Part shown: piece after piece, positions 6,571-30,383 of the stretch
Numbering within the stretch: position 1 is the stretch's first letter
How the letters are laid out: each line of letters begins with the position of its first letter
Source of the DNA: a virus
Lineage: Duplodnaviria > Heunggongvirae > Uroviricota > Caudoviricetes
Reading direction: 5' to 3' (one strand)
DNA length: 64,000 nt
IMG/VR virus record: IMGVR_UViG_3300042887_002597
Location: 46,234 to 110,233 of that record
Translations under genes and position numbers: made by a program
The notes under the pieces: model-generated
The model's database searches: none
What the model saw: the letters and a program-made list of their open reading frames with translations, nothing else
What the model was told of the DNA's origin: nothing

Positions 6571-6571
6571 A

Positions 6572-8458
6572 TTAGAAAGATGTTATTCTGCCTTCGATGT
6601 CTCTGTCTGGGAATTTTACTTCAAAGATAGCTGGATCTAGGCTTGGGTATGTTATTCCGTTTTTGGTTGCTCCTGCTATATCGTAGAGCACGTCACTATA
6701 TCCATCAGCTACGCTATTTAGGTTTTGGATTGCTAAATTAGAAACTGTCTGTACCCCTTTCACTCCCAATAATGCCATCATAATTTCACTATGCACAATA
6801 GGTTGATTGATTTGCCATCTATCAACATTAAAGTGATCTTTTAATCTCTGTATGCAGCGAGCTAGGACTTCATTACTATTGAAGTTAGGGCTTGGAAGTA
6901 TATCAAATTTAACTCCAATATTAATAATATAGGCATCTCTGATGTTGATGCTATCGGTGAGCATTCTGTAGTGATCCAAATAATTTGCTAAGTTGGTCTT
7001 TACCGCCTTGTTTACCGTAGAGCATTGCTTGCTATCGTTATATCCTAACACAAACAAATTTAGTGCCAATGGATTTGCTACCGTATCATTAACCTCCGAT
7101 GTACCTATGTTATTTTGCTCATCAGGCGCTATGAAAGCCTTGGCTACTGAACCAAATATACTTGGCATTGAGTAACAACGCACGATATAATCCTCTCTAG
7201 TAACAGCCCTATTTTGTGAAGAAAACTGTGCTAATGCATTTTGTCTTATCTCCTCTATTGTCTCTTCATTCCTACCTCCAGCAGCTGCAGTTGTATTGTT
7301 TACAATAACACTCTGTATTACTGTGTTGTTGAGTGTTGCTGTGTTTGTTGGTAATGTTGAGTTTGTAGTGTCTATTGACGTAATCTCTGTAATTGTGTTT
7401 GACGGTACATTGGAAGCTACGCCTCCTCCTGTGTAGTAGCTAACTGTTAGAGTTGTGTTTGATGGAGCTATTCCATATGTAGATGTTAGTAGTGGATTGC
7501 TTGGATCCAAAGATGCATCTGTATCTGCTTTACCGGTTGCAGTAGCTATTGCAATCTGTTCTGGCGTTGCCAACAACTCTTCGTCTGGTGTATTTGATAC
7601 TCCAGAGCCAAACTGTATTTCCAATCCACCCTCTACTACACGAGTTATAAACCTTCTTGGTACTTTTTTTAATCTAAGAAGGTATGGAGTTTCGTTACTA
7701 TAAACTGCTGCGTCTGGGTCATTGTATGCTGTATTCTCTACTCGCTCAAATATAGTATCTTGAGCTAGGTATGGAACCTCATACCAGGTATTTCCATCTG
7801 AGTCTACTATGCTATCTAATCCTATAATTGGATTCGTAGCAGAAGTTGGTAAAAATACTTTTGTAAACCTTTCGCGAGATGTTATCGTATAAGTTTGCGT
7901 CTGCAAAGCAGCGCTAATCGCTTTGACTGTTTTTTTAGCTAAATAATATATTGGATTACCAGTACTATTATCTATACTATAAACCGAGTATTCTGTGGGA
8001 TTGAATGTGTTATTAATTCTAAAATCAATAGCATCCTGCACAGTAAAGGTAATGCCTGTTCCTGTTGATCTTGCTTCCAAACCTGGTTCAATCTTTAAAC
8101 CGTACCTTATGTCTGGTGTGCTGCCGTTTCCAGAACCACTTGCAGGTATTAGTTGATACACATCTAAATCTACCTGCGCAGGTACCGATAGCTTAGGCTT
8201 GTAGCCAAGTGCTGACGCTATACTCAATAGATTTCTACGCTCTTGAGCGTGCAATAACATAGACTCCTTAAAATTAGCGTCTGTGTAGTATCCCAACACA
8301 TCACCTACATAAGCTGCTAAATCAATAAACAACGATCCTGGTGACGCTTCGTTAAAGTCTGTGTAGGAATCCGGATAGTAAGCTCTAGCAAACTCAATTA
8401 AACCTTGTTTAATGGAATCGAAATCTCTTCCGTAGTATTTTATATCTTGATTAGCCAT
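6572..8458 (-). CDS. virion structural protein (baseplate/tail)
   Basis: 628-aa ORF, Thr/Asn-rich. Overlaps the upstream gene by 8 nt. Confidence 0.8.
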   Translation of the reverse strand: MANQDIKYYGRDFDSIKQGLIEFARAYYPDSYTDFNEASPGSLFIDLAAYVGDVLGYYTDANFKESMLLHAQERRNLLSIASALGYKPKLSVPAQVDLDVYQLIPASGSGNGSTPDIRYGLKIEPGLEARSTGTGITFTVQDAIDFRINNTFNPTEYSVYSIDNSTGNPIYYLAKKTVKAISAALQTQTYTITSRERFTKVFLPTSATNPIIGLDSIVDSDGNTWYEVPYLAQDTIFERVENTAYNDPDAAVYSNETPYLLRLKKVPRRFITRVVEGGLEIQFGSGVSNTPDEELLATPEQIAIATATGKADTDASLDPSNPLLTSTYGIAPSNTTLTVSYYTGGGVASNVPSNTITEITSIDTTNSTLPTNTATLNNTVIQSVIVNNTTAAAGGRNEETIEEIRQNALAQFSSQNRAVTREDYIVRCYSMPSIFGSVAKAFIAPDEQNNIGTSEVNDTVANPLALNLFVLGYNDSKQCSTVNKAVKTNLANYLDHYRMLTDSINIRDAYIINIGVKFDILPSPNFNSNEVLARCIQRLKDHFNVDRWQINQPIVHSEIMMALLGVKGVQTVSNLAIQNLNSVADGYSDVLYDIAGATKNGITYPSLDPAIFEVKFPDRDIEGRITSF

Positions 8459-8867
8459 TTACTTCCAATAATATTGATCTTGTATCGAACCCTAACTCAT
8501 CCAAACTTATATCCAACTTAACAAAAAGCGTGTTTGTTTCTGCGTCTGGTGTAAGTTCTAGCTTTTGTATAAATATGTAAGGTAAAAATGTTTGGAAGCT
8601 ATTTCTTATTCTTAGATTTAAAGCTTGTAGAGTTTCTTGTGTGAGGTTTTCAAAAATAGTCTTTTTTAAACCACATCCGAAATCTGGAAGCATTACTCTT
8701 TCGCCAGGCTCAGTTAGCAAAAGGTTTTTGGCATTAGCTTCTGCTTGATCTATCGTAAAGTAGTTTTGCTTAAAAGTCGCTCCTCTCTCTCCCGCTAATG
8801 GAAGATCTAAACCCAAAGCTACGTTCTTCTCTAGGTCTACTGGGTTGACTTGTATAATATATGCCAT
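8451..8867 (-). CDS. hypothetical tail-module protein
   Basis: 138-aa ORF, translationally coupled to its neighbours. Confidence 0.7.
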   Translation of the reverse strand: MAYIIQVNPVDLEKNVALGLDLPLAGERGATFKQNYFTIDQAEANAKNLLLTEPGERVMLPDFGCGLKKTIFENLTQETLQALNLRIRNSFQTFLPYIFIQKLELTPDAETNTLFVKLDISLDELGFDTRSILLEVNG

Positions 8868-9328
8868 TATGGTCTAAAGTTTGGATTGCTTAATTCTTCC
8901 GATCTTTTTAAGACAGATGAATAATCCTTAACAAATATATCTGTTGCTGATGATCCTATTGTTGGAAAGTCTGGGTTTGCTTGCTCCACTGACTCTTCTC
9001 CAAAACCAGCCATTGTTTGTGCTGTTTCGTTTAGTAAATCGCCTAGAGGTCCTCCTACCGTGGTAAATGGCTCATCAAGAGTTACTAGCGGTGTGGTTCT
9101 TTTGTTTACTTGCAAAGCTTGGTTTGGTTTAGGCATAGGCTGCTTACCTTCATTAAGCTTTTTAATCTCAGTACGCACTGCGATTTGAACCTCCTCACGG
9201 ATAAGCTCACGCAACATGGACTTAAATTGACTTAGTTTCATATTTTTGTTTTTTATAAATAGTGCTTTATTGTAGTATTCTGTTAGTAACCTATGACATA
9301 GTCTTGTTTTGATAAGTACCCACGCCAT
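8867..9328 (-). CDS. hypothetical tail-module protein
   Basis: 153-aa ORF immediately downstream of the tape-measure-like gene. Confidence 0.65.
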   Translation of the reverse strand: MAWVLIKTRLCHRLLTEYYNKALFIKNKNMKLSQFKSMLRELIREEVQIAVRTEIKKLNEGKQPMPKPNQALQVNKRTTPLVTLDEPFTTVGGPLGDLLNETAQTMAGFGEESVEQANPDFPTIGSSATDIFVKDYSSVLKRSEELSNPNFRP

Positions 9329-12300
9329 GTAAACGGTGCAATTCCGGTACTTAATGGTGGTATGGCTATACCGCTCATACGCTCAAGTTGGCGGTTAAAT
9401 CCTTCTCCCAACTCTTCTGCATATCCTTGTGCACCATTTTCGCTCAAAGCTTGCATTTGGGGGTAAAATCTACCAACATTAGTTACAATAAATTTAGTAC
9501 CGTATTGATTTGTCCAACTAATTCCCGTCCAAAACAATCTTCCAGCTAATCCAAAAATAAAAGACATGATTTTAGCATCAAGATTTATCTTAGAATCGGC
9601 TTTTGCTTTAGCATACGCTGCGACATCCTGTTCGAGTTTTTCTTTTTGCTTTGCGGCCTCTCCTTTTATGTAGGCAATCACAGGATCCAGAAGATCTTCT
9701 ATAAGCTCTACTATCTTTTTAAAGAACAATCCTATACCGTCAATTATTGGTAAAATTAAATCTGATACTTTTGACAGCTTGTATCTAAGGTAAAGAAGTC
9801 CAGGATCTCTCGTATCTTGTGGTATAAAACTTCCTAATCCAGCAGCTTTTACTCTCAGTCGTTTAAACGCTGCCTTTTCTGCTCTTATTATTGAGTACGC
9901 TAAATCGCCTTGAGCCTTTAGTTGCCCTGGTATAGCTGCAAGCTCTTGTAATGTTGGTTTGCTTCTTGCTCCATCTAATATCTCCATTAGATTTTCGAAA
10001 ACTCCAGTTGCTGCTCCTTGGATAGCAGTTCCCTTAGCTACCACTTTCTCTTCGTATATTTTTTTAATTTGAGCTACTAACCCCGTTTCTTTACATTCCT
10101 CTATGATTCGCTTAAAGAATAGAAATATCTGCTCGTACGCTTTTAAGTCTGCAACCTTAGCGTTGAACTTCTTAATATCAGCTTGCTTTTGGTCTCTTGT
10201 GATTTTGCCCCTTTCGAGTTGTAGTTCTAAAAAGGTGTTAACTAACTGTCTAACACCAGCTTCGTTTTGTGTTATGGGTGCATCAGTGTTTTGTGTCAAT
10301 CCCACAAATACACGAGGAGCATTTACAACGAGTTGATATGCCAATCGAGCCTCCTTAGCAAGCTTTCTAAACTTATTTAATTTTTCCTTCGCCTTTGCTA
10401 TATTAAACTCATTCTTCCTTTTTTTATTTCTTATTCGTTTAGCTGTTGGATTAGTGTCTAATAGTGTATTAATGTATTCATCTAAGTATTGTTGTTCTTG
10501 TACTACAGCTAATAGCTCTTCCTCTTTATCGCTAATTAATCTCTGTACTGCCGCTTCCGCCTCATCTATTTTGTTATTGATTACACGACAGCTTCTAATT
10601 AAACGCAAATACGTCATGTGCCTATCAGCCTCTCCTCTCACAATACTTGCTACGCCAACTGCACCACCTTCAACGGAATTGTAATCTTCTGTGATGCGAT
10701 CTACCTCTTGCATGAGTTGTTGATAGTACGGATCGTTGGGTTTTATTGATAGCAGCTTCTTTAGTCTAGGTATATCAACGGTTAGCATAGTTTCAACACT
10801 CTTTGTAACAAGCATAACCTTATCGCCACCTCTTCTCAGAAAAGCTGCTACTTGTGGCGGATTCAATTTATACAAGCTTTGAACTTGCTCCATTATCTGC
10901 CTTACTATAGGCGTACTATCTCCAACACTCTCAAGAAGTTGAGCTGTTGTTGTATCTGCGTTTACTAGCTTTGTATTTTTTTCAAAAGCCTGTAATGCTC
11001 GTTGCCTTGCTTCTTTTGCAGCTGCTGATATTGACTCTTCAATGTTAGACTTAATCTCACCGTACTTTTCTTTTACGTCTGCTACCGTATCTATTGCTTG
11101 CTGTATGGCTTGTTTTATTGTCGTATATATTGTAAACAGCTTTGTGAATATAGTTTGTATAGTGTCCAGTATCAGCCTATAGTGTCGTATTGCTCTGCGA
11201 ATCTTTTTTGCTTTTGCTTTTACTCGCTTTGCAGTTTCTCTAACCTTTCGACCAGCTGCTAATCTCTCCTTTCTCTTAGTCCGTCCATTTAGCTCTTTTT
11301 CTTTTGCAATTTTGCTTTGTACACGCTTAATTGTATCCGCCAATCTGTTTTTTAAGTCATCTAACTTCTTATCTAATTGAGCTCTAACGCTTATTTTCTT
11401 AGCTTCTACTTTAGCTAATAACTTCTTCTTAAGCTCCTTTAGTTTTTTGTTGTTTTCGATAATTTGAAGCATTGTATTGCCTATCACCTTTCCACCTGGA
11501 ACGTAGATCAATTCTTTCCAGTACCCAATAAACTTCTCAGGATTAATGAAGCCGTTAAGTATTTTCATAAACTCGTTTACAACAGCTCTTATTTTTTTAG
11601 ATACGTAAGTTTTAAAGTTAGCTTCTCTGGTGAAAGTGTTTTTATACTTATTCACTATGTTTTTAGAGCTACGCGCATAGTTTGTTAGTGTTTGGAAGGT
11701 TTCCTCTATCGAAGCTATATTTAAGCTCGGCTCTACTTTTAGGCTCAGCAACGATTGCAGGTCTGCAATTTCTTGAGCCATCACTTCATTGAAGTTAAAT
11801 TCTGAAAGGTTTTGTGCGTTTAGTTGCTTAAACCTATCTCCCAAAGACTTAACCTCATCTAAAGCGCTCTTTATTATCTCCTTTTTTGTACTAATAAACT
11901 TTTTAAATTCAGGTACAATACTTTGTATCTTTTCTCTTATCTCACGAAGCTGGTCATCTAGGTTTTGTATCTGTATTTGTAGGTCTTGAATCTCACTAGT
12001 TAGTTTATTGTAGGTTGTAATTGCCGATTGAATATCTTGCGATAGTGATTGTATCCTAAGTTTTCCTTGGGATATCTCTTTACCAACAAAATACACTCTA
12101 ACTGTATTGTAAAAGATTCTTTCTCTTGTCTTATTTGTAATTGAGTTTCCTGGACCTACTGGTACTGGTGTACCTGCTGCTAATGGAGAGGGCATTGTCA
12201 ATGGGATACCGTTTGGAGCGTTTAGAGACAACGAAGACATGTAATGCTTGGTAATTCCAGCAGCAAAGTCGTCTGCATTTGCATACACACCTTGCTCTAG

Positions 12301-12342
12301 GTCGTTGGCTAGTCTCTTAGTAAAAATCTCTTGGAAGTCCAT
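9283..12342 (-). CDS. coiled-coil rich tape-measure-like / internal virion protein
   Basis: 1019-aa ORF, extremely Lys/Glu/Gln-rich with long heptad-like stretches (LKELKKKLLAKVEAKK...). Size and composition are typical of tail length tape-measure proteins. Inference from composition only. Confidence 0.6.
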   Translation of the reverse strand: MDFQEIFTKRLANDLEQGVYANADDFAAGITKHYMSSLSLNAPNGIPLTMPSPLAAGTPVPVGPGNSITNKTRERIFYNTVRVYFVGKEISQGKLRIQSLSQDIQSAITTYNKLTSEIQDLQIQIQNLDDQLREIREKIQSIVPEFKKFISTKKEIIKSALDEVKSLGDRFKQLNAQNLSEFNFNEVMAQEIADLQSLLSLKVEPSLNIASIEETFQTLTNYARSSKNIVNKYKNTFTREANFKTYVSKKIRAVVNEFMKILNGFINPEKFIGYWKELIYVPGGKVIGNTMLQIIENNKKLKELKKKLLAKVEAKKISVRAQLDKKLDDLKNRLADTIKRVQSKIAKEKELNGRTKRKERLAAGRKVRETAKRVKAKAKKIRRAIRHYRLILDTIQTIFTKLFTIYTTIKQAIQQAIDTVADVKEKYGEIKSNIEESISAAAKEARQRALQAFEKNTKLVNADTTTAQLLESVGDSTPIVRQIMEQVQSLYKLNPPQVAAFLRRGGDKVMLVTKSVETMLTVDIPRLKKLLSIKPNDPYYQQLMQEVDRITEDYNSVEGGAVGVASIVRGEADRHMTYLRLIRSCRVINNKIDEAEAAVQRLISDKEEELLAVVQEQQYLDEYINTLLDTNPTAKRIRNKKRKNEFNIAKAKEKLNKFRKLAKEARLAYQLVVNAPRVFVGLTQNTDAPITQNEAGVRQLVNTFLELQLERGKITRDQKQADIKKFNAKVADLKAYEQIFLFFKRIIEECKETGLVAQIKKIYEEKVVAKGTAIQGAATGVFENLMEILDGARSKPTLQELAAIPGQLKAQGDLAYSIIRAEKAAFKRLRVKAAGLGSFIPQDTRDPGLLYLRYKLSKVSDLILPIIDGIGLFFKKIVELIEDLLDPVIAYIKGEAAKQKEKLEQDVAAYAKAKADSKINLDAKIMSFIFGLAGRLFWTGISWTNQYGTKFIVTNVGRFYPQMQALSENGAQGYAEELGEGFNRQLERMSGIAIPPLSTGIAPFTWRGYLSKQDYVIGY

Positions 12343-13131: not shown

Positions 13132-14052
13132 TTAGTTTAGTGCAGGAATTGCTGGTCCTGCTGATTCGTAGTATCCTGGTTTGTTGACGTTTGGACCAGC
13201 TGGTACTGATGGTGTTGTCAGTGGGTTGCTGATACTAGCATTAACATTAACGTCAATAGAAGTTTGTGGCTTCGTAATCTCAGCGTCAGTCGGTGGTTTT
13301 GGTAAGGTATCAAAGTCGGGTTGTTCGTGTGAATATCCATCTACAAAAACTTCCGTAGAGATTAACTCTTGTAGTCTGGTCTGTAGTGCCATGAAATCCC
13401 ATTGCGTATCTTCCCTTGCTGTTGCGTAGCCAACTGGTGTTAGTGATTGTTGGTATTTTAATACCACAAGTAAATCGTCTAGCCAGTTTATTAATTTTAG
13501 TCCTAGCACCATTGGCTCGTAAGGAACATCTGGTGATGGATATGATTTTAGCTTTTTACCTTCTTTAAAGAATCTAGGGTCTCCAGGTATAATTGAGATT
13601 GGTTTAGGTGGTTGTCCTTTTGCTGGTATACCTAAGTAAACTCCAGAATCTCCAAATATAGTAACACTTTCGTCAGCATCTATGTTTACTCTTGTTGGTG
13701 ACGTAAGTGCAACACCTTGTGCACCTGCTATAATAGTCTGACTATCTTTTGAATTAACAATGACTCGTCCTGAGTTTATGAGAATGGATGGGCTTCCAGC
13801 ATCGTGATCATTTACGATAAACTTTCCGTTTGCAACTAATCCAACTGCTTTAAGCCCTGCACCTGGTTGTATTGGATCGACTGTTATACCTTGATCGTAT
13901 AAGTAATCTTTCATTGGCAACCCAAATACGCTACCAGATCCTGATGTAGCTGAGCCACTTGCATTGGATCCTGATCCGTTGTTACCAGAAGCTTCGAAGC
14001 TTCCTGCAATCAGTGTGCCTTGTTGACTTATCTCTTGTATTGATTGACTCAT
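13132..14052 (-). CDS. hypothetical virion protein with Gly/Ser-rich N-terminus
   Basis: 306-aa ORF with SGNNGSGSNASGSATSGSGS low-complexity linker. A promoter-like TAAATATACAAAA box lies just upstream at about 14063. Confidence 0.7.
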   Translation of the reverse strand: MSQSIQEISQQGTLIAGSFEASGNNGSGSNASGSATSGSGSVFGLPMKDYLYDQGITVDPIQPGAGLKAVGLVANGKFIVNDHDAGSPSILINSGRVIVNSKDSQTIIAGAQGVALTSPTRVNIDADESVTIFGDSGVYLGIPAKGQPPKPISIIPGDPRFFKEGKKLKSYPSPDVPYEPMVLGLKLINWLDDLLVVLKYQQSLTPVGYATAREDTQWDFMALQTRLQELISTEVFVDGYSHEQPDFDTLPKPPTDAEITKPQTSIDVNVNASISNPLTTPSVPAGPNVNKPGYYESAGPAIPALN

Positions 14053-14095: not shown

Positions 14096-15745
14096 CTACA
14101 CCCCTCTTCCCACCACACCAGCTGCATAAAGCGCGTTTCCTATTTCTAGAGCCTTTAAATGTCCTTCCGATCCTCTCACCTCGCCACCACCATGATTTGC
14201 TCTCACAAACCAATACACAGCATCGTCTATTGATGTAAAACTATTTTTTTCTTTTTGAATTTTGCTTCCTCCAATTCCATTTAACAAAAACTTAACAGCT
14301 ACAACAGCAGCTGTTGGCACATCGTTAAGTTGGTCTGGGTTACTTACTAGGTCTATGCCAGCAAGTTCACCATATTTTTTATATAACGCTTTGAAAGTAA
14401 CTTGATTAAAACCACGACCTCGATACAACCAACCGTCTCCTGGATTATCGTTCATAGTATTCCAGCTTGGACCTGGGTCTTGTTTATATCCGTATATTAC
14501 GTCGTAAAATTCTACGTTATCTGCTTTTAATGCTGTTAGCTGCGGTTCATCAAAGCGTTTTAATCTAGCCCCAAACAGATGTCTCAATCTCTCATTTGAT
14601 GTGTTACCATATCCATATTCGTTCTTTGGTATGAATCCACACTCTTTTCCAACAACTCCTAATATACCAATTTGCGAAAACGGATTTGTTATACCGGCTT
14701 GTTGCATTGCATTTATTAACACTCGAATATTGTCATCTTTTGTTCCTCCACTTCCTAATGATCCAATATCAAAACCACCACCTCCTCCTACAAATCCGGC
14801 AACATTTAAGTTAATTTCAAATCTAAAGTTAGGATCATATACGCCATCTACTGTAGCCTGTAGCCTTGTAGACTCAAAGTCTTCTACTCTCTGGAATGGT
14901 TTTGGTCTGGTTACCTTTACGTTCCATGTATCCATTCTTTTGCTAGTTGCAACTTCCATTGGAATTATTTGTGTGCTTGTGAGATACACAACAGAGTCCG
15001 TTTCGTTGATTGAAGGTTTTATAAGATAGGACTCGTCAGTTGTTATCTTTTTACTTGCTTGCAGTATCGTTATAGGATCCCCATCTTCTGTAGTTTGTAC
15101 CTTGCTTAGGACATCTGACCCTATGTGCAGGTCGCTATATATATCCTTTACAATAATCTTATCCATCGTACTTGTGAATAAGATGGAACTACCAAACCTT
15201 CCTTCAAGAATTGTATCACCTTCTCTCAGAGAGGTTACTCCATAACTTGAGTTTTGATAATCCTCATATGGTATTTGTAGCTTATCTTGAAATCGAGTAG
15301 CTAATAAAGGCTCATTTACCAGAGCATCTAACAAATCTCTATCAATGTTAAAGGCTGTAGTCGATAAAAACGGCTCTGATCCATATGCAATATTCAGCGA
15401 CTGCTTTACAATAGTTCCGTATGCATACGTCAATCTCGTACCTACTAATACTGGGTATATCATTACTTGCTCCCCTGGTAAAGGTACTTGGTATCTTGAT
15501 CGGTTTGCTGGGAATGCGAACAAACTGACGTTCTTCTCTTCTTTTTTGTAGTCTTCTGGTATTGCTCGAAAGCGTATTGCTCCTACTCCGTACTCGGAGC
15601 TGTAGTATGGAGATGATTCGTCTAAGATTACGTCTAGTACATGCCCAAGCAATATTCTCTCAGAACCCTTCTTACGTGATGATGGATTTGGCTTTGTGTT
15701 TTTAGGCCCTAATACTTCTGATAAACCACTAAATGTACTACCCAT
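14096..15745 (-). CDS. tail-associated lysin paralog 1: conserved N-terminal module + C-terminal GH19-like lysozyme/chitinase domain
   Basis: 549 aa. N-term MGSTFSGLSE and internal REGDTILEGRFG, DGDPITI and YDPNF blocks are shared with the two upstream paralogs. C-term carries GILGVVGKECGF and YRGRGFNQVT, which I recognise as GH19 signatures; near-identical motifs occur in the 28954..29781 endolysin. Confidence 0.7.
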   Translation of the reverse strand: MGSTFSGLSEVLGPKNTKPNPSSRKKGSERILLGHVLDVILDESSPYYSSEYGVGAIRFRAIPEDYKKEEKNVSLFAFPANRSRYQVPLPGEQVMIYPVLVGTRLTYAYGTIVKQSLNIAYGSEPFLSTTAFNIDRDLLDALVNEPLLATRFQDKLQIPYEDYQNSSYGVTSLREGDTILEGRFGSSILFTSTMDKIIVKDIYSDLHIGSDVLSKVQTTEDGDPITILQASKKITTDESYLIKPSINETDSVVYLTSTQIIPMEVATSKRMDTWNVKVTRPKPFQRVEDFESTRLQATVDGVYDPNFRFEINLNVAGFVGGGGGFDIGSLGSGGTKDDNIRVLINAMQQAGITNPFSQIGILGVVGKECGFIPKNEYGYGNTSNERLRHLFGARLKRFDEPQLTALKADNVEFYDVIYGYKQDPGPSWNTMNDNPGDGWLYRGRGFNQVTFKALYKKYGELAGIDLVSNPDQLNDVPTAAVVAVKFLLNGIGGSKIQKEKNSFTSIDDAVYWFVRANHGGGEVRGSEGHLKALEIGNALYAAGVVGRGV

Positions 15746-15747: not shown

Positions 15748-17370
15748 CTATGCTCTTGGTGCTCTAAATATCACACAATTCCAGTTATTTGAACTTTGGC
15801 TTCTATAAACAAAAGAGCTACCATTGTAATTATACTTATTGTCTGTTGTCCAATTTCCTTTTCCTGTCAAAGCTCCTATGTACATTTGAGCATGTCCATA
15901 CTGTACGTGAGATGCTCCTGGGTTGCCATCTGACGCCCAGTAGGTTATTGCATCTCCTACATTCCATGGTACGTGATTATTGTTACTATCTAATGGACCT
16001 TTTTCACAAATAGCTATCATAGTAGCTTTTGGTATATTATTAACTTGGAACTTCGTATAGCCTATCTGCACCATATGGTTATGGAATCCAGATCCATTCG
16101 CATTTCCTCCAGCTGCGACATTCATTCCTGGTATCGCTGCTTGACCTTTGACTAATAAACTATAATTGTTTGCGTGGTTAAATGTTCCGCGAGCGCATTT
16201 ATGCTTCGTTTCACCTTGTGCAAAGGACGCTTCTAAAGCTTGCTTTACTAACTGTTCCTGTCTTGTTGATGCTGGTCCTGTTAGTGGTACTGGCTGACTA
16301 GCTCCTCCTTCAAAAACTTTATCGTTTGTTGGATCGTCATCAAAAGCTTCTCCAGGAAATACGACGTCAGCTGTCACAGATACTCTAAAGTCTGGGTCGT
16401 ATTCACCTTCAATGAAAGATTGTAATCGTGCTGCTTGGTCAATGTATGCTAATAACTTGTTGCCCTCTCTAGTAGTTCTCTGAATTTCAACTGCCCAAGT
16501 TGACATTTTTTTACTAGTGCCTATGATAAGTGGAATGTTTTGTGTTGTATTGAGATAGATTGTACTTTGATCCACATTAGGATCCTCGTCTACCAATTGT
16601 GGTATTCCATCATTAAATTGCGTTGTCTCAGGTTCTAATGGCTTTGAATTTTTTAGAATTAAGAAAGGATCCCCATCAGCACTATTATCTATTCTAGTCA
16701 TTTGACTATCGCTCCACACACCTTCCTTTTGTATCGTACTTGTAAACCTTATGCTATTTCCAAAGCGTCCTTCAACAATCATATCTCCTTCTCTCATTGT
16801 TGAGATAGTTCTACCCTCTTTGATAAAGGTAAATGGCTTATGCTCAAGTCTTAGTTGAAATCTAGCGTTTGCAACTTCCTGTGTTATTGTGTTGAGTAAT
16901 CCGCTCACAAAACCTTCTGGTTTAGATATACGGTCTATTTTTGTAAGTGCTTTAGGGTCTGCTGCATACCTCGGTATGTTAGCTCCTGTTACTACATTTG
17001 TATATAGCTCAACTTTTCTTTGTGGTGCGCCAGAATTGCTTTGTGTTGACATAATTAGAACCAGCTCACCAGGTACCGGTAGTCGCATATTGCTACGATC
17101 AGCTGGATACGCTATACTGGCTACTTCGTCTTCGTACTTGTTGTCGTCTGTGGTTTGTCGCTTATATCTTATGGCTCCTATTAACTGATAGTTAACGGTT
17201 GTATTAAGCTCATCTATTAGTCCTTCCAAAGTAGCTTGCTCTACATCCTCACCTGTAACTACATTAAGTACTTGAGCTAAGAATAGAGTTTTATAGTCGG
17301 ATATGTTAGATTGCTCTAATGTTTTAATGTTATTAACAAACTCCGATAAACCTGTAAATGTACTACCCAT
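15748..17370 (-). CDS. tail-associated lysin paralog 2: conserved N-terminal module + C-terminal Cys/His (CHAP-like) peptidase domain
   Basis: 540 aa. N-term MGSTFTGLSE plus REGDMIVEGRFG, DGDPFLI and YDPDF blocks. C-term has Cys (KHKCARGT) followed by His-rich HVQYGHAQMYIG, and ends NWNCVIF. The CHAP assignment is inference. Confidence 0.6.
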   Translation of the reverse strand: MGSTFTGLSEFVNNIKTLEQSNISDYKTLFLAQVLNVVTGEDVEQATLEGLIDELNTTVNYQLIGAIRYKRQTTDDNKYEDEVASIAYPADRSNMRLPVPGELVLIMSTQSNSGAPQRKVELYTNVVTGANIPRYAADPKALTKIDRISKPEGFVSGLLNTITQEVANARFQLRLEHKPFTFIKEGRTISTMREGDMIVEGRFGNSIRFTSTIQKEGVWSDSQMTRIDNSADGDPFLILKNSKPLEPETTQFNDGIPQLVDEDPNVDQSTIYLNTTQNIPLIIGTSKKMSTWAVEIQRTTREGNKLLAYIDQAARLQSFIEGEYDPDFRVSVTADVVFPGEAFDDDPTNDKVFEGGASQPVPLTGPASTRQEQLVKQALEASFAQGETKHKCARGTFNHANNYSLLVKGQAAIPGMNVAAGGNANGSGFHNHMVQIGYTKFQVNNIPKATMIAICEKGPLDSNNNHVPWNVGDAITYWASDGNPGASHVQYGHAQMYIGALTGKGNWTTDNKYNYNGSSFVYRSQSSNNWNCVIFRAPRA

Positions 17371-17371: not shown

Positions 17372-18976
17372 TTACCAAGACATTAAAAGTGTATAAGTGA
17401 ATGCCGGTTGTCCGCTTGCTTCTGCTTGACGCAATACCTCGGCTAATGATGTTGGTGCTGCAAAGACTTGACAGCCAGCACTGTATTGGCCAACGTTTTG
17501 TGTAACACTATTAGCACTAGCTCTGTGCAAGTTCATTCCAAATACTCCACTTGCATTTTGTGGAGTTGCATCAGGTACATCATCTCGATTACGGTCTGTA
17601 TATATGACATATGCAGTTGACTCTCTAAATGCTTTATATTGGCTATTGTGTTGACCTATCTTGTATACGCTATTATACTGACCTGGCTTTAGGATAGCTG
17701 TTCTACTCTGTCCTTCGAAGAAGTTTTCTAAGTAATACTTTCCTGGTACTGTTGTTGCCGGGAAGAACTTGACTTCTCCAGTGTTACTATTAACAACGCC
17801 AACTAAATCTGCAAACTTGTTTTTAGTTTGCACTCCCGAGTTGTTTATGTTAATGTTTGTTACGGATCGTATACCTACGAAGTGTACACCAGTTGGAAGA
17901 CTGTATCCTAGTTCTTGGAACTTTAATTTAATTTCATCAAAAGACTTAGCTTTTGCAGAGGAACCTGGTACACCTGGGTCGCTAACTCCTGTAATATTAC
18001 CCAATCCGTTTGACGCATTAGGATCGTAAGCTAAGCTTTCAAGTCCACTAACATTAACACTTGGTACAAAGTTAGGGTCATAGGTCAGTTCTGGGAAGAA
18101 TGATTGGAATCGTGCTGCAGGATCATCACTTAAACCAAACTTACCTTTTGTTATATTCACACTCCAACTACTCATAGATACACTTGCAGCTAGTTTTATT
18201 GGCACGTTTTGCGACGTAGTTAAGTAGAAGCTTGAATCTTCTACATTAATGTCGTCATCTTCTATCAGATTAGATTCCTGTATTATTTCGTTAACTTCTT
18301 TTCTCCTAACACTAGCTTTCATTATCAACATAGGATCACCATCAGCGCTCTTACCTATATTAGTTATTTGTGTTTCTGGGTTCCATACACCATCCTTTGT
18401 GATCGTATGTGTGAATTTTATTACACCTCCCATCCTACCTTCGAGAATAGAGTCTCCTTCTCTAACACGAGTAAACGATCCTGCTCTACCATTTAGGGCA
18501 TTGTCGCTAAAATCGTTTTTTAACGCAAATCGTTGCGCTTCAATTTCTGGATCGACTGTGATGGCTGGTGCACCTGACGAGTCAAAGGCGTCTTGCAAGA
18601 GTGTTGGATTGATATTGTTTCGTAGAAAGAAAGACGGTGTTACCACATCAAAATAGTAATACCTTCCTAACTTTCTAACAATTAATACTTGCTCTCCAGC
18701 AAAGGGTAGTCTGTAGTTTGCTCTGTCTAATGGCTCTGCTATTAATGTAACGTCTTTCTCCGCTTTGGTACCACTATTTGCTTTTAAGAAACGAATCATC
18801 CCTATGACATAGGGATCCTGTGTTGGGGTTATCTCACTAACTCCAATTGTGAACTTTGAAGTACTCTTTCCAACATCTAATACTTGTCCTATAAAGACCT
18901 CACCATCCTTAAAGGTGTTACTAGGTGCAGCTGCTGCGCCGTAGTACTCGGTTAGGCCTTTAAAGACACTACTCAT
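17372..18976 (-). CDS. tail-associated lysin paralog 3: conserved N-terminal module + C-terminal His/Cys LD-peptidase-like domain
   Basis: 534 aa. N-term MSSVFKGLTE plus REGDSILEGRMG, DGDPMLI and YDPNF blocks. C-terminal 130 aa (YTDRNRDD...GVFGMNLHRAS...SAGCQVF...FTYTLL) aligns by eye to the free 198-aa protein at 29787..30383. Confidence 0.65.
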   Translation of the reverse strand: MSSVFKGLTEYYGAAAAPSNTFKDGEVFIGQVLDVGKSTSKFTIGVSEITPTQDPYVIGMIRFLKANSGTKAEKDVTLIAEPLDRANYRLPFAGEQVLIVRKLGRYYYFDVVTPSFFLRNNINPTLLQDAFDSSGAPAITVDPEIEAQRFALKNDFSDNALNGRAGSFTRVREGDSILEGRMGGVIKFTHTITKDGVWNPETQITNIGKSADGDPMLIMKASVRRKEVNEIIQESNLIEDDDINVEDSSFYLTTSQNVPIKLAASVSMSSWSVNITKGKFGLSDDPAARFQSFFPELTYDPNFVPSVNVSGLESLAYDPNASNGLGNITGVSDPGVPGSSAKAKSFDEIKLKFQELGYSLPTGVHFVGIRSVTNININNSGVQTKNKFADLVGVVNSNTGEVKFFPATTVPGKYYLENFFEGQSRTAILKPGQYNSVYKIGQHNSQYKAFRESTAYVIYTDRNRDDVPDATPQNASGVFGMNLHRASANSVTQNVGQYSAGCQVFAAPTSLAEVLRQAEASGQPAFTYTLLMSW

Positions 18977-22530: not shown

Positions 22531-22606
22531 ATAACTACTTTTTAAATTTACTACTTATTACTATTATATATAGAAGTTATACCTAAAAATTCAGAAAGTC
22601 AACAGT

Positions 22607-22780: not shown

Positions 22781-22933
22781 ATAACTAATCACAAAATAAT
22801 AAACATACACTGATAAGGATGTATGTGAATATAAACACACCAACCTCTACGTCAGGCTCATACTTTTGCCTGAGCATTGCTTTCCCTATTAGACGGGATA
22901 TACACGTATAAAATATTGACTTGAGGACAAACA

Positions 22934-24135: not shown

Positions 24136-24591
24136 TTATTTTTTAATTAGATAGAATATGGCACCACCCAAAGCTAAATCGCCAATTCCAAGCCACATGG
24201 CAGTCTTTTTCCAACGAGCTTTGCGATTAATCTCATCACTCAATTCCTTTTTAGTGAGTTGATGCAATCCCCATTCCATCTCATACTTAGTCTTGTATTC
24301 ATTAGCTAAGCTGGTCATCTCTCCAAACTTAACATAAAGGGTGTCGTATGCCTTACGCTCTAGTATAGTCTGCCTATCGCAGTTGATCTGATAGTCAAGT
24401 AGGCGTGCATTTTCTTTTTTAAGTCCCTCGCTTTGTTTTAGGAGTTGTAGTAGAGCCACTTCTTGAGTGCGCACAAAGAACACACCAGTATCACCGTTGT
24501 ATACTATACGCTTAGGGGATAGGGATGGCTGACCAAGCGCTATCAAGCTGCTCAGTACTAAAGTTGCTAATATTGCTAACGTCTTGTGCAT
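24136..24591 (-). CDS. secreted/membrane-anchored coiled-coil protein
   Basis: 151 aa. N-terminal signal peptide MHKTLAILATLVLSSLIALG, central coiled coil, C-terminal TM AMWLGIGDLALGGAIFYLI. Confidence 0.55.
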   Translation of the reverse strand: MHKTLAILATLVLSSLIALGQPSLSPKRIVYNGDTGVFFVRTQEVALLQLLKQSEGLKKENARLLDYQINCDRQTILERKAYDTLYVKFGEMTSLANEYKTKYEMEWGLHQLTKKELSDEINRKARWKKTAMWLGIGDLALGGAIFYLIKK

Positions 24592-24844
24592 TTTGTATTC
24601 TTATTGTTACTATGTCTGTTTTTATATTCGCCTGTGCGCTATCGTAGTCGTGTCGTGCATCTAGTAATTGAGCGTTAAGTTGCTCTACAACACATTGCAA
24701 GCTATCGATACGATTGTCCACTGGTGGCGCTGGTATAGGCCTGTTTATATGCCTATGTTGTGCATAGATTACTACTAATAAGATTAGCACTATAACCCAA
24801 GGCAGTGCATACATTCGGTATTTCTTAAAAAAAGTTTGCATCAT
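24512..24844 (-). CDS. small membrane protein
   Basis: 110 aa, N-terminal TM ALPWVIVLILLVVIYA; overlaps the downstream gene. Confidence 0.45.
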   Translation of the reverse strand: MMQTFFKKYRMYALPWVIVLILLVVIYAQHRHINRPIPAPPVDNRIDSLQCVVEQLNAQLLDARHDYDSAQANIKTDIVTIRIQNAQDVSNISNFSTEQLDSAWSAIPIP

Positions 24845-24858
24845 TTTATATAAATATG

Positions 24859-25515
24859 TTAACTGTTGCTCTTTTCTGATGCATACTTAACCCCCATAAT
24901 AGTACCTACTATACTAAACGAGTTGGTTAGCAATATACCAAACATGTTTGACCATGCTGAGCTTATTATTGTAGTGTCATAGTTCATGACCATAGCAAAG
25001 ACAAACATACCAGTGGTAGCAACACCGACGCCTAAGATAATATATAATGCTACCCTAACGATGTTGTTTATCAACTCAAACTGAGTCTTTTTCTGCATTA
25101 GATCCAAATCATTTTCGGCAACTAACTTAGCATTCTCAGCAACCCTTAACGCTTCACGCAAATCTATATCCATCTTCTCATTCTCTTCCTTCCATTCCAA
25201 CAACTCTTTATTCTGACACTCAATTTGTGCTTTAGAAGTCTCCATATCAGCTAAGGAAGCTTGCAGCTCTTGCATTAGCTTCTCATTCTGCTCTTGAGCT
25301 TCTGTAAGTTCTGTGTTTTGTGTTTGTATACGCTTAGTGATTTCCAAACGCTTACGTCTACTCTCCTTATCTCTATCAGCACATATCTTGAGATACTCAG
25401 CAAACTCAGTATCATCCTCAGGATCAATTAGCTTAAGGATATTGCCCTCAAGGCATATATTCTTTGTCTTGTATACGTTTAGTAACTGTTCTTTTGTAAC
25501 CTTTCCTACTATCAT
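24859..25515 (-). CDS. coiled-coil protein with C-terminal double TM
   Basis: 218 aa. Long Glu/Lys coiled coil, then two hydrophobic helices at the C-terminus. Confidence 0.55.
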   Translation of the reverse strand: MIVGKVTKEQLLNVYKTKNICLEGNILKLIDPEDDTEFAEYLKICADRDKESRRKRLEITKRIQTQNTELTEAQEQNEKLMQELQASLADMETSKAQIECQNKELLEWKEENEKMDIDLREALRVAENAKLVAENDLDLMQKKTQFELINNIVRVALYIILGVGVATTGMFVFAMVMNYDTTIISSAWSNMFGILLTNSFSIVGTIMGVKYASEKSNS

Positions 25516-25967
25516 TATCTATACACTTTAAACGATGCTGTTCTAGATTCGTATGCTGAGTAGTCTTTTCTAAACTCCTCGAGTCGCGGTTCAATATCGT
25601 CAGACTTTATGATCCAGAACTGCGCTCCGGCCTGTACCGCCTTAGCCTGCTCTTCTGCTTCGTTGCTTGAAGATATGATTCCAATCACTACATGATTACC
25701 ATACATAAAGTTAATTCGTCGAATCAACTCTATACCGTCAAATGACGATCCTATAATGTTCAAATCAACGAATACACACTTTGGTTTATCAGCAATATCG
25801 CCAGTCTCAAACCATCTTTTAAACCTCTTTTCTGCTTCATCAGCGCTGTTAATTGCCTCTAAAGACAGTGTTATGTCTAATAAGCTACAAGCATCTTCAA
25901 ACACTAAGTGAAACAAATCTTCATCGTCTACTAGCAATATAGACTCAATCATATTTAGGTCAATCAT
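25515..25967 (-). CDS. stand-alone response regulator receiver (CheY-like) domain protein
   Basis: 150 aa. N-term acidic pair LLVDDEDL, putative phospho-acceptor Asp in VFVDLNI, conserved S/T in IGIISSS and Lys in WIIKSD. No output domain. Confidence 0.65.
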   Translation of the reverse strand: MIDLNMIESILLVDDEDLFHLVFEDACSLLDITLSLEAINSADEAEKRFKRWFETGDIADKPKCVFVDLNIIGSSFDGIELIRRINFMYGNHVVIGIISSSNEAEEQAKAVQAGAQFWIIKSDDIEPRLEEFRKDYSAYESRTASFKVYR

Positions 25968-27270: not shown

Positions 27271-27875
27271 TTTGATTCTTCTAGTAAACTTTTATTTTTC
27301 CAAATCCAATTTTCACGACTGCGAAGAAATCCTTCGAAGTTTATAAATTTCAAAGTACTAAAGTAACTAACAGGTGAAGGAAACTTCTTATCATGTTCTT
27401 CTCTGAGCTTCACATACTCTGTATATTCTTGCTTAGTCATCTTCTCAAATACAAACACACTACCATCCTCATAACTATACAGATTGTAATCGTCTAGATT
27501 TACAAAATACACTTTATTGTAAGGAGGTAGCATATATAGAAAGCTACCATGCATAGCCATTTCACGAATAGTCAAATTCAATTCATCTGCCCACTTATAG
27601 GTAGTATCAGCAACATATTGGATACTATCAAGGACCCTAGAATTCCCAGCAGCCATCTTTAAGCTATCAACAACCTTATTCAACAATGCAATCTTTCTAG
27701 TTTGTTCTCGAATAATTCTTTTTTGCGTTTCGATAGCTTTATTGATATCAATTGATTGCTTAATAGACAAGATAACAACAGAATCCCCCTTATAGATTGT
27801 CTGAATTGGGTACTTAGTCTGACTAAGCCCAAACACAGATGTTAATAAAAAACCTAATAATATTAGTGTTCTCAT
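27267..27875 (-). CDS. secreted protein of unknown function (within the two-component cluster)
   Basis: 202 aa with signal peptide MRTLILLGFLLTSVFGLSQ. Translationally coupled on both sides to the kinases. Confidence 0.6.
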   Translation of the reverse strand: MRTLILLGFLLTSVFGLSQTKYPIQTIYKGDSVVILSIKQSIDINKAIETQKRIIREQTRKIALLNKVVDSLKMAAGNSRVLDSIQYVADTTYKWADELNLTIREMAMHGSFLYMLPPYNKVYFVNLDDYNLYSYEDGSVFVFEKMTKQEYTEYVKLREEHDKKFPSPVSYFSTLKFINFEGFLRSRENWIWKNKSLLEESK

Positions 27876-28951
27876 TTTATTTTGATTTTCATTTTAGTTC
27901 CTACGTCATTTTTTTCGCAACTAATATGAAACCCATGCTCCTGCAGTATAGCAACGCATATATTTAAACCTAACCCAGAACCAGACTCTTTCTGACCTTC
28001 CTTTCGTGTATACGGCTTAGAGAGGTGCTCAAAATCTTGTTGAGTCAATCCTCTACCATTATCTTGGATAACAAGCGTATCACTATCCTCTATATAGATG
28101 GTTACCATCTTAGTATCCGAATCATTATATTTTAAACCATTACGAATTAGATTATCAATAGCTGTACAGAATAGCGCTTCGTTAACATCTACAGTAGGTA
28201 GGTCTTTAATTACCACTTGACTTTTGTATGAGGTTGAGGCTAGGTAGGATTCCAGTATATGCTTTAGATCGCATAACTCCTTTTCTAGCACAACATCTTT
28301 CTTAACTAAATTAGTGAATTCATAAACGCCTTTATAGACTTTTTGAGCGTGTGATAATCCTTCTTTGATCATTTTAAGAGGAGCTTCTATCTTTAATTTC
28401 TGGATATCCTCCGACTTAAGTCTTCTCTCTAACGAACTAATACCTCTTGGTATGTATGTGTTAATACCCGAATGCATGTCATGTCTAAGGATTTTAGCTG
28501 CATGCTCTAGGTACATATTCTTTCGATTCAGCTCCATAGACTGCTTCATCAATGCAGTAACATCTTGTCTAATGGATGAAAATCCCTTCAACTTTCCACA
28601 CTTATCAAAACGAGCTCTAATGTAGGTATCTACCCAATAATAGTCACCCTCTTTAGTTTTATTGCAGACAATGTCATTCCATATCTCACCCCTCAACACC
28701 GTCTCATACATATTACCCCAATAGCCATCAGGTTGCGTTCCAGAGTTAACTATGGAGTGATCCTTACCCCTAACCTCATCCAACGTCCATCCAGAAACCC
28801 TCTCAAACTTATCGTTAACATAAACTATCTTACCATATTCGTCGGTTATAGAGATAATAGCCGCCTTATCGATAAACTTATCAGCTTCGTTTAGTTCAGA
28901 ACTAAATAAAGCTCTATAAAAAGAAGAGACTATGTTCTTTAGGTAGTTCAT
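27872..28951 (-). CDS. cytoplasmic PAS-domain sensor histidine kinase
   Basis: 359 aa. N-terminal PAS-like region (ITDEYGKIVYVNDKFERVSGWTLDEVRGKDHSIV), H-box KILRHDMHSGINTYIPRG, HATPase_c boxes NLIRNGLKYND / DNGRGL / GSGLGLNICVAILQEHGF. Confidence 0.7.
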   Translation of the reverse strand: MNYLKNIVSSFYRALFSSELNEADKFIDKAAIISITDEYGKIVYVNDKFERVSGWTLDEVRGKDHSIVNSGTQPDGYWGNMYETVLRGEIWNDIVCNKTKEGDYYWVDTYIRARFDKCGKLKGFSSIRQDVTALMKQSMELNRKNMYLEHAAKILRHDMHSGINTYIPRGISSLERRLKSEDIQKLKIEAPLKMIKEGLSHAQKVYKGVYEFTNLVKKDVVLEKELCDLKHILESYLASTSYKSQVVIKDLPTVDVNEALFCTAIDNLIRNGLKYNDSDTKMVTIYIEDSDTLVIQDNGRGLTQQDFEHLSKPYTRKEGQKESGSGLGLNICVAILQEHGFHISCEKNDVGTKMKIKIK

Positions 28952-28953: not shown

Positions 28954-29781
28954 TTATTTCAACAAACTATAATACTCCTTAAAGTGCTTTATTCTATCAG
29001 GTAGTCCAATAGTGCCACCATTCACTCGTTTAGTCACAGCCGTCACAGTAGCATCGTCAGCTCCCTTATCGCAAATAGACCAAAGGTTGTTGGAGTTAAA
29101 GAAGAATGCTGCAGATGCAAGTGGATACTTGGTAGCTACTAAGTCTGGATCGTTTACCGTATCTTCGCCAATGAATTTAGCAAAGTTTGTATAGTTTGAC
29201 TTACCGGTTAACTGAATATAACCACGTCCACGATACTTGTATCCTTCACCGGTAGACTCATCACCATTACCCATTCTTGATCCATAAACACGAGATGCGA
29301 TCTTTGCTGGTTGCTTAGCATATGAGTTAGCCAAATCACCAGGGAAGTACTTGCCAAATATCTTTTTAAGGCCGTCTGCAGAGTAGTTTAAGTTCTCTTG
29401 GATTGCTTTAAACCCAGCTGATTCATGTCCACATTGAGCTAAGAAATGAGCTAAACGTAGTGGGTTCGTGATGTTAAACTTAGCTGCAGTGTCTGGAATT
29501 TGAGCAATTACTGCATCAGGGATGTGCCCTTTTAGCGCATCTAACTTAAATGCTGATGGTGGAATTGCTACAGGAGCAGTTGCCTGTACAGGAGTTGCTG
29601 TACCGAACATCTTACCCCACGTACCAGGTCCTACGATACCATCTGCCGTTAGACCATTAGCTGCCTGCCATTCTTTAACCTTAGCCTCAGTGCCAGGTCC
29701 AAATACGCCATCCGCTCCTAAGCCTAATAGCGTTTGAAGTTGCTTAACTTCTTCTCCTTTCGATCCGTTCTTTAATAACAT
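28954..29781 (-). CDS. endolysin: peptidoglycan-binding domain + GH19-family lysozyme
   Basis: 275 aa. N-terminal PG_binding_1-like repeat (LKNGSKGEEVKQLQTLLG...DGVFGPGT). Catalytic region AHFLAQCGHESAGF ... YRGRGYIQLTGKSNY is a classic GH19 signature. Confidence 0.8.
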   Translation of the reverse strand: MLLKNGSKGEEVKQLQTLLGLGADGVFGPGTEAKVKEWQAANGLTADGIVGPGTWGKMFGTATPVQATAPVAIPPSAFKLDALKGHIPDAVIAQIPDTAAKFNITNPLRLAHFLAQCGHESAGFKAIQENLNYSADGLKKIFGKYFPGDLANSYAKQPAKIASRVYGSRMGNGDESTGEGYKYRGRGYIQLTGKSNYTNFAKFIGEDTVNDPDLVATKYPLASAAFFFNSNNLWSICDKGADDATVTAVTKRVNGGTIGLPDRIKHFKEYYSLLK

Positions 29782-29786
29782 AAGCT

Positions 29787-30383
29787 TTATTTAATGTCGC
29801 TTGACTCGATAAGCGTGTAAGTAAAAGAGTTTCCGTGAATATCACGAGACTTACGACAGATAGTCATAAATGCTTCAAAGTCTGCTGCCTTCTTAAACAC
29901 TTGACAGCCTTCTGACCAGTTCTCAACGTAAGTAGAGTCTGCACCAGCCTTGTGTATATTGATTCCGAATACACCCTCTTGGATTTTATTCTCGTCATAA
30001 GTCATGTCACGATTAGCGTCGCGATAAACCTTAACTGGCTTATTCTGACCTAATGCTTCGTACTTACCTTGGTGTAATCTGATGATATGCGAACTGCGAT
30101 ACTGTCCTTCTACAAGACGAGCAACACCAGCTGCATTATGATACTCCTTAACTCCCTTCTTACCAGGATCGGTTGTAGCAGCCCAGCAGTGGAATTTCCA
30201 CACACCATTCTCTTTATATGAAATCGTTAGCAAATCATCAAACACATTAGTTACAGTCTGACCTGTCGCAGAATTGCGAATACCTACGATATTAACGTCG
30301 TAACCCTTGTTGTTAGCGTCTTCAAACCAAACGTATCCTTTGGATTTGACAGCTGCTTCTACCTGTTCTCTTGTATAGCTCAT
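29787..30383 (-). CDS. putative peptidoglycan peptidase with His...Cys motif (YkuD/LD-peptidase-like)
   Basis: 198 aa. GINIHKAG ... SEGCQVF motif. Homologous by eye to the C-terminal domain of tail paralog 3. Sits next to the endolysin. The fold assignment is inference. Confidence 0.6.
   Translation of the reverse strand: MSYTREQVEAAVKSKGYVWFEDANNKGYDVNIVGIRNSATGQTVTNVFDDLLTISYKENGVWKFHCWAATTDPGKKGVKEYHNAAGVARLVEGQYRSSHIIRLHQGKYEALGQNKPVKVYRDANRDMTYDENKIQEGVFGINIHKAGADSTYVENWSEGCQVFKKAADFEAFMTICRKSRDIHGNSFTYTLIESSDIK

Follow-up and report, generated by a model that had tools for sequence, protein, structure and literature searches.

Whether a phage supplies its entry and its exit enzymes from the same domains is the question raised by a locus in a 64,000-nucleotide stretch of viral DNA (the window; positions 46,234 to 110,233 of the Caudoviricetes record IMGVR_UViG_3300042887_002597 in IMG/VR). 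The window most likely belongs to an uncultured contractile-tailed phage, and a megablast search of 19 kb of it against INPHARED returned no match. It encodes two adjoining free putative lysis enzymes, a 275-amino-acid (aa) protein with a GH19 domain and a 198-aa protein of the phrog_3000 family. It also encodes, beside the baseplate genes, three tandem tail-protein paralogs with a common N-terminal scaffold and different C-terminal putative lytic domains, here called warheads (Table 1). An earlier note, made from the letters of this DNA, had described the free enzymes as the same domains as two of the warheads, used as one toolkit for entry and exit, and as donors or recipients of domain shuffling.

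Homology and origin of the free and tail-borne domains

By BLASTP, the 198-aa protein (residues 30-194) aligns with paralog 3 (residues 364-533) at 33% identity over 175 residues (75.9 bits, E = 1e-20; E = 1e-19 with all open reading frames (ORFs) of the window as the database). The motifs earlier quoted as collinear are indeed aligned columns: YRDANRD/YTDRNRD, GVFGINIHKAG/GVFGMNLHRAS, SEGCQVF/SAGCQVF and FTYTLI/FTYTLL. The free GH19 protein aligns with residues 352-471 of paralog 1 at 30% identity over 121 residues (42.7 bits, E = 6e-9; about 3e-7 against all window ORFs). Its YRGRGYIQLTG core, which had been said to reappear in the tail protein, pairs there with YRGRGFNQVTF. Two glutamates about 9 residues apart, putatively catalytic as in GH19 enzymes, also occupy aligned columns (free E120/E129, tail E368/E376). 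Both members of the first pair belong to phrog_3000 (E = 2.5e-37 for the free protein, model positions 46-205 of 209), and both members of the second to phrog_181, 'endolysin' (E = 5e-68 for the free protein and E = 9e-21 for the C-terminus of paralog 1). The two BLASTP comparisons proposed in the earlier note are thus both significant. Among all window ORFs, these two free-tail pairs are the only cross-hits, and the paralog 2 warhead has no free homolog there. By these scores, the free-tail similarity is far beyond chance but remote. The idea of a single toolkit stands for the two warheads that share families with the free enzymes and fails for the third.

No sister relationship between free and tail copies was found in either family. 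The closest relatives of the paralog 3 warhead are its own orthologs in related phages (56-95% identity), followed by many unrelated members at 34-42%. With family representatives for the ranking and the tree chosen by similarity to the free copy, the free 198-aa protein ranks 186th of 282 family members by bit score to the tail copy. Hundreds of other proteins resemble the free copy more closely than the tail copy does, and the identity of the free copy to other members of the family reaches 69%. In a neighbour-joining tree of 150 phrog_3000 domains, the two window copies join only at the root, and the tail clade forms a separate long branch. For the second family, the best match of the tail GH19 domain in INPHARED is a megaphage protein at 45% identity, against 30% to the endolysin of its own genome, and its identity to jumbo-phage 'endolysin/tail fiber' proteins (virion proteins or endolysins) is 30-34%. 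The free GH19 protein is 72-77% identical to lysins of lineage relatives, 66% to an uncultured megaphage protein and 44-57% to lysins of Flavobacterium, Cellulophaga, Microcystis and other uncultured phages. Neither free gene therefore appears as donor or recipient of its tail counterpart, contrary to what had been supposed. Here it is proposed that the free and tail copies of both families are true but ancient homologs, each drawn independently from a common pool of phage lysin domains. The reading as a whole, with the roles in entry and exit set out below, is held at a probability of about three in four.

Warheads as exchangeable cassettes

The three paralogs share their N-terminal ~310-335 residues (31-35% identity, E = 3e-30 to 3e-43), and each warhead follows a G-rich linker. 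The comparison set consisted of IMG/VR loci (±10 kb; L numbers below) around two anchor genes from the interval that separates the lysis region from the spike region, together with proteins from homology searches. Among complete arrays, one scaffold gene is present in 16 contigs and exactly three in 8 contigs and the window, and no array has two or four. The single-copy genes are mostly warhead-less (295-380 aa). In the three-copy arrays, positions 1, 2 and 3 match the N-terminal parts of paralogs 3, 2 and 1 (par3N, par2N and par1N), respectively, at 44-99% identity.

The domains that follow these scaffolds differ from array to array. From position 1 to position 3, the warheads are phrog_3000, CHAP-like and GH24 in L010; phrog_3000, VanY and GH24 in L019; GH24, CHAP-like and GH19 in L020; and Phage_lysozyme2, GDSL-like and M23 in L009. 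L013 has none at position 1, followed by M23 and GH19, and L011 has GH24 and M23, with position 3 truncated at the contig end. Further types include M15_4, Amidase_2 and two unknown clusters. Altogether there are 13 warhead clusters, including VanY (E = 2e-14), Phage_lysozyme2 (E = 7e-13), Amidase_2 (E = 2e-6) and a weak GDSL-like match. Scaffold orthologs at 66-76% identity carry GH24, M23 or M15_4 instead of the warheads of the window. Ortholog identity falls from 60-86% to ~16-23% at residue ~315-345, right after a conserved YDP motif and the G-rich linker. Ten or more kinds of lysin domain are thus found on orthologous scaffolds, exchanged at a sharply defined junction, and the warheads are interchangeable cassettes with recombination immediately after the YDP motif.

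The free lysins vary and shuffle independently of the tail set. In L032 and L034-36 the spike is a 334-aa protein with no warhead, but both free lysins are present at 72-83% identity, their gene order being reversed. L016/L030 retains the 198-aa gene along with all three warheads, and the free GH19 gene was not found in the ~12 kb of upstream sequence within this locus. Of the free lysins, L031 has only GH19. Because the free lysins behave independently, the sharing of families between entry and exit enzymes in the window is a coincidence of the current cassette set and not a maintained design.

L021, L025, L027 and L029 encode a separate protein of ~470-508 aa with a VanY-like C-terminal domain, ~2-3 kb downstream of their only spike gene. 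Its VanY-like domain is 27-53% identical to the VanY warhead cluster, and in these single-spike relatives the lysin may ride on a different tail protein.

Identity of the tail paralogs

The warhead of paralog 1 matches the 'tail fiber' family phrog_3201 besides phrog_181, and its score against the Pfam GH19 model is 16 bits (E = 0.011), below the cut-off of 25.5. An ortholog from a UFOVP genome bears the InterPro-derived name 'Glycoside hydrolase, family 19, catalytic' in BFVD. On these matches, the paralog 1 warhead is a divergent GH19-like domain. The warhead of paralog 2 has a papain-like fold with Cys before His, and a Foldseek search of its model against the PDB gave nothing significant.

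The spike array lies directly upstream of the genes for the 306-aa, 261-aa, tape-measure-like, gp25-like and gpJ-like proteins. Pfam (GPW_gp25, E = 8e-12; Baseplate_J, E = 7.5e-5) and PHROG baseplate wedge families (E = 1e-16 to 1e-25) recognise the baseplate genes among them. A gp5/gpV/VgrG-type protein would be expected at such a place in a baseplate/hub gene cluster, and the paralogs are found there without belonging to the sequence families of these proteins. Because the scaffold has no match in Pfam, PHROGs or PDB sequences, searched with single proteins and with a 19-sequence profile, the assignment of the tail paralogs to a gp5/gpV-type central spike or hub of the virion is only probable. 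A megaphage protein offers independent support for it. In the 642-kb genome LR756502.1 (L040, positions 96000-114000), a 504-aa protein (9388-10899) has a phrog_3000 domain as its C-terminus, and the only PDB match of its N-terminus is T4 gp5 (E = 0.09, a 28-residue OB-fold motif). Two genes upstream of it, an 883-aa protein (4900-7548) ends in a GH19-like domain with 45% identity to the paralog 1 warhead. The two megaphage proteins contain neither the scaffold of the window nor any common N-terminal domain.

The paralogs could instead be peripheral baseplate or tail-tip proteins that display lysins. No sequence family ties them to gp5/gpV, hhalign of the scaffold against a gp5-like megaphage protein was not significant and the N-terminal model is of low confidence. 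A peripheral position is nevertheless doubtful, since OB-fold spikes and gp5-like hub-lysozymes recur as the best structural neighbours in two libraries (the BFVD matches, to gp5-like hub and lysozyme proteins, being sub-threshold), the tape-measure-like, gp25-like and gpJ-like genes follow closely downstream of the array, and a copy number of 1 or 3 only fits a trimeric axial component. It is also at odds with two distant relatives, a 592-aa protein in L031 (11206-12981) and a 434-aa protein in L033 (7009-8310), in which the scaffold is fused to a C-terminal module of the 306-aa type that the window encodes downstream. Given these fusions, the 306-aa protein is probably part of the same structure, and the Rosetta-stone link suggests that it forms the distal portion of the spike.

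The free lysins and the phrog_3000 family

The free GH19 protein passes the Pfam cut-offs for both of its domains, with PG_binding_1 at E = 5e-14 and Glyco_hydro_19 (PF00182) at 41.9 bits (E = 1.3e-10, cut-off 25.5). An N-terminal binding module with a C-terminal catalytic domain is the layout of modular endolysins of Gram-negative hosts (PMC6116005), and the free GH19 protein has this Gram-negative-style layout. Together with the lysin relatives, it suggests a Gram-negative host, possibly of the Bacteroidota, which is a guess. Neither free protein has a transmembrane or signal segment, and both would be soluble, holin-dependent endolysins.

The 198-aa protein also matches phrog_33083, 'endolysin' (E = 2e-11), and has no Pfam or NCBIfam match and no PDB sequence match. 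The PDB matches returned for the protein and for a 48-sequence profile, to WD40 and nanobody entries only, were discarded as spurious. Its family is labelled 'unknown function' in PHROG, and literature searches found no characterisation of it. The family is large: ~7,958 of 8,000 scored candidates were significant in a 90%-clustered database, and at least 2,761 clusters or representatives in a 50%-clustered library. Homologs are found in crAss-like phages, Bacteroides phages, P2-like Pseudoalteromonas phages and megaphages. Members are mostly free proteins of ~190-210 aa, and about one third of the top 150 are longer. Among the 45 longest (at least 245 aa), ~20 family matches tie the domain to lysin-type modules, namely PG_binding_1 (6), Phage_lysozyme (3), PG_binding_3 (3), glucosaminidase (2), Amidase_2, SLT, GH19, and LysM or SH3. 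By these annotations, the fusion partners are the typical company of lysin catalytic domains.

One member may fill a gap in a described genome. The P2-like Pseudoalteromonas phage ACA1 (OR438928.1, annotated with HHpred) has two annotated holins and no annotated endolysin, and because of this its gp35 (L041, 21970-22590), a phrog_3000 member annotated as hypothetical, with its gene flanked by those for the tube and the chaperone, is a candidate for that function. The related phage HP1 presumably has its lysis genes at the equivalent position, in the tube-chaperone interval.

The putative catalytic motif of the family resembles that of YkuD. Among 48 diverse members, C160 is present in all and H144, S157 and G159 in nearly all, and the tail copy in paralog 3 also keeps the residues of the His...Ser-x-Gly-Cys motif. 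The motif IH-x12-S-x-G-C equals Bacillus subtilis YkuD in order and spacing (H144...S157EGC160 against H123...S136KGC139). It likewise fits the pattern expected of L,D-transpeptidases, a His 12-17 residues upstream of [S/T]-x-G-Cys, and the published motif HXX14-17[S/T]HGCh (bioRxiv 10.1101/2020.02.18.954545). The two differ after the Cys, where the 198-aa protein has Gln-Val-Phe and YkuD-type enzymes have [IVL]-[RN], and no member passes the Pfam cut-off for YkuD or Tlde1. The window proteins have no Pfam match to YkuD (PF03734) or Tlde1 (PF10908), and neither do the family consensus sequences to YkuD. The best sub-threshold scores of relatives are 18 bits for YkuD (E = 0.0014, cut-off 23.4) and 16 bits for Tlde1 (cut-off 30.1), and such matches, seen in several members, are confined to the C-terminal third of each model, the catalytic part. 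Comparison of the family with YkuD by hhalign gave E = 0.43, 0.29 and 0.12 with a single sequence, a 3-sequence and an 83-sequence profile; the best of these (83-sequence YkuD profile, 80 genomic loci) covered 23 columns, with the motif region alone aligned. An AlphaFold2 model of the 198-aa protein was unusable (mean predicted local distance difference test score 38, from an 11-row alignment of mostly >86% identical sequences). Because profile-profile comparison was never significant in three attempts, the family was not filed under YkuD. A YkuD-like catalytic centre, with roughly even odds, is a lead and not a result. Among lysins, YkuD-type domains form a recognised class, though a rare one (PMC8310338).

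The resemblance to L,D-transpeptidases, which build cross-links and do not cut them, raises the possibility that the 198-aa protein is not an endolysin. It might remodel the wall (e.g., as an L,D-transpeptidase or carboxypeptidase acting on the peptidoglycan of the host), exclude superinfecting phages, or be a virion protein that is ejected. The 'unknown function' label of the family and the position of the crAss002 homolog among early/replication-type genes beside the terminase would agree with such roles. They are unlikely for a protein that has no signal peptide or transmembrane segment and could not reach the periplasm without a holin, and whose gene adjoins the GH19 endolysin gene and in L016 directly abuts homologs of the three membrane-protein genes of the window. 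The domain is elsewhere fused to lysozymes, amidases and PG-binding modules and is used as a spike warhead, and ACA1 has no other annotated endolysin. An endolysin thus remains the preferred reading of the 198-aa protein.

Proposed roles in entry and exit

At exit, the PG_binding_1 and GH19 glycosidase and the phrog_3000 Cys/His protein would most likely act together as holin-dependent endolysins. At entry, the three tandem baseplate paralogs, with their phrog_3000, CHAP/NlpC-P60-like and GH19-like domains, would digest the wall locally. We infer the enzymatic activities, the virion location, the spike identity and the timing of action from sequence comparison.

A more specific proposal is made tentatively and is held at less than even odds. 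The three paralogs would form one heterotrimeric central spike with three different peptidoglycan hydrolases at the tail tip, each exchangeable independently of the others (a glycosidase, a CHAP-like peptidase or amidase, and the phrog_3000 Cys/His enzyme), and derived from a triplicated gene for a warhead-less homotrimeric spike. At the same time, phrog_3000 would be a new and very abundant family of Cys/His peptidoglycan peptidases, with members acting as endolysins and others as warheads in phages that range from crAss-like ones to megaphages. The heterotrimer is suggested because the scaffold copy number is 1 or 3 only, an indirect hint from 24 complete arrays, and the same copy number turns it into a directly testable hypothesis.

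Some points weigh against the picture of independently acquired lysins drawn here. The choice of family representatives by similarity to the free copy biases the sampling, and the neighbour-joining tree is crude and without support values. Only L016/L030, L031, L032 and L034-36 cover both the spike and the free lysin genes, which makes the co-variation test a small one because most contigs break near window position 22.6-23.8 kb. For the exit step, homology identified no holin.

Recent shuffling inside this genome, with the free genes as donors or recipients for the tail paralogs, would account for two families that each occur twice in one genome, and warheads clearly do move between scaffolds. 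It is very improbable, however, given copies only 30-33% identical, the low rank of the free 198-aa copy and a common ancestor at the root of the tree, a free GH19 protein 66-77% identical to lysins of other phages, and relatives that have the same free genes without warheads. Chance or shared composition, which has nothing beyond the low percent identity in its favour, is refuted by the E-values of 1e-20 and 6e-9 in composition-adjusted BLASTP and by the independent PHROG profiles that put both members of each pair in the same family.

Genomic neighbourhood

The genes of the region are all on the minus strand, and the four ORFs compared by the earlier note have exactly the coordinates it gave them.

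Table 1. Features of the window discussed in the text (positions in the 64,000-nucleotide stretch).
Feature	Position	Strand	Description
Baseplate context	6572..12342	-	1019-aa tape-measure/hub-like, gp25-like and gpJ/gp6-like genes; weak match to phrog_184, baseplate hub
gpJ/gp6-like protein	6572-8458	-	Baseplate cluster
gp25-like protein	8451-8867	-	Baseplate cluster
1019-aa tape-measure- or hub-like protein	9283-12342	-	Baseplate cluster
261-aa ORF	12342-13127	-	Between the 306-aa gene and the tape-measure-like gene
306-aa ORF	13132..14052	-	Directly downstream of spike array; no Pfam or PHROG match
Tail paralog 1 (549 aa)	14096..15745	-	Scaffold with GH19-like warhead
Paralog 1 warhead	14096-14770	-	Residues ~326-549
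Tail paralog 2	15748..17370	-	Scaffold with CHAP/NlpC-P60-like cysteine-peptidase warhead
Paralog 2 warhead	15748-16305	-	Residues ~356-540
Tail paralog 3 (534 aa)	17372..18976	-	First in array
Paralog 3 phrog_3000 warhead	17372..17965	-	Residues ~338-534; phrog_3000 E = 1.5e-23, residues 366-530, model 30-198 of 209
Paralog 3 scaffold	17966..18976	-	N-terminal ~337 residues; putative central spike/hub; position-1 orthologs 51-99% identical in relatives
HD-domain gene	20580-21341		
Three membrane-protein genes	24136..25515	-	Transmembrane-like segments; candidate holin/spanin-like lysis partners
Receiver-like gene (150 aa)	25515-25967	-	Assigned from the motif LLVDDE alone
Second histidine-kinase-like gene	25960-27270	-	
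Histidine-kinase-like gene	27872-28951	-	PAS and HATPase_c Pfam matches (precomputed only)
Free GH19 endolysin (275 aa)	28954..29781	-	N-terminal PG_binding_1, C-terminal GH19 catalytic domain
Free 198-aa protein	29787..30383	-	Putative soluble endolysin, phrog_3000; conserved His144-x12-Ser157-x-Gly-Cys160
SPFH/Band_7 protein	31602-32390		Pfam E = 1e-10; phrog_200 'lipoprotein' E = 3e-35

The three membrane-protein genes are candidate lysis partners of the free enzymes. Between them and the two lysin genes sits a kinase/receiver block (25515-28951), in which the two histidine-kinase-like genes have the stretch MYLEHAAKILRHDMHSGINTY in common. Neither this block nor the GH19 gene was found in the part of the close relative L016 that the locus covers. 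The gene for the SPFH/Band_7 protein, which has an N-terminal lipoprotein-like leader, is located ~1.2 kb upstream of the lysin genes, a position kept in relatives. Many related IMG/VR contigs start 1.3-2.4 kb upstream of the HD-domain gene, i.e., at window position ~22600-23800, which suggests a hotspot of assembly breaks, a hypervariable region or a physical end of the genome. Downstream of the spike array, the 261-aa ORF contains a stretch (YKYGFVWYG...FTYVG) that resembles the C-terminal end of VanY/M15 peptidases. Its reading as a degenerate VanY domain was not supported (BLASTP to VanY warheads E = 0.11, no Pfam match).

Comparison with known systems

Related lytic domains on a virion protein and on a free endolysin are also known from phage phiKZ, which has a modular endolysin of the PG_binding_1 type (gp144) and a virion protein (gp181) with a related lytic C-terminal domain. 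It differs from the window in its lytic transglycosylase family, its single warhead and its other carrier protein. Among bacterial type VI secretion systems, 'evolved' VgrG proteins such as VgrG-3 of Vibrio cholerae carry a peptidoglycan-degrading C-terminal extension, and mixed VgrG trimers exist. The heterotrimer suggested for the window would be the phage counterpart of such mixed trimers. VgrG spikes, however, belong to a bacterial secretion system, whereas the spike of the window would be part of a virion, with a heterotrimer suggested by copy number.

In phages of Gram-positive hosts, lysin domains of the same families as endolysins have been shuffled onto tail proteins (Tal proteins and tail lysins with CHAP, M23 or lysozyme domains), while a single catalytic domain is typical of virion lysins in Gram-negative hosts, endopeptidases being almost confined to Gram-positive systems (PMC6116005). 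The lineage of the window departs from this picture, with three domains on three paralogs, peptidase types included, beside a Gram-negative-style endolysin.

What departs from the known systems is the set of three warheads on three paralogs, the rule of one or three copies and the large uncharacterised phrog_3000 family. The arrays form a natural combinatorial library, useful for engineering tail-borne or chimeric lysins and for learning how phages tune penetration to the peptidoglycan chemistry of the host. As an unannotated candidate lysin class, phrog_3000, once recognised, would fill 'missing endolysin' gaps in many phages, such as that in ACA1.

The classical case is T4, in which the free endolysin gp e serves exit and a homologous lysozyme on the central spike gp5 serves entry (PMC7650644). 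Like T4, the window combines in one genome a free endolysin with a spike-borne homolog of the same catalytic fold, and its putative spike, with a possible OB-fold, is likened to the OB-fold spike of T4 that carries an enzyme domain. T4 has one spike gene and one domain type, with the lysozyme in the middle of gp5. The window has three paralogs, three C-terminal domains and two free enzymes, 30-33% identity between free and tail copies, and a scaffold with no detectable sequence relation to T4 gp5. Because the gp e/gp5 pair is classical and the shuffling of lysins onto tails is documented, the theme of one lysin fold serving both entry and exit is established, and the window adds one more example of it.

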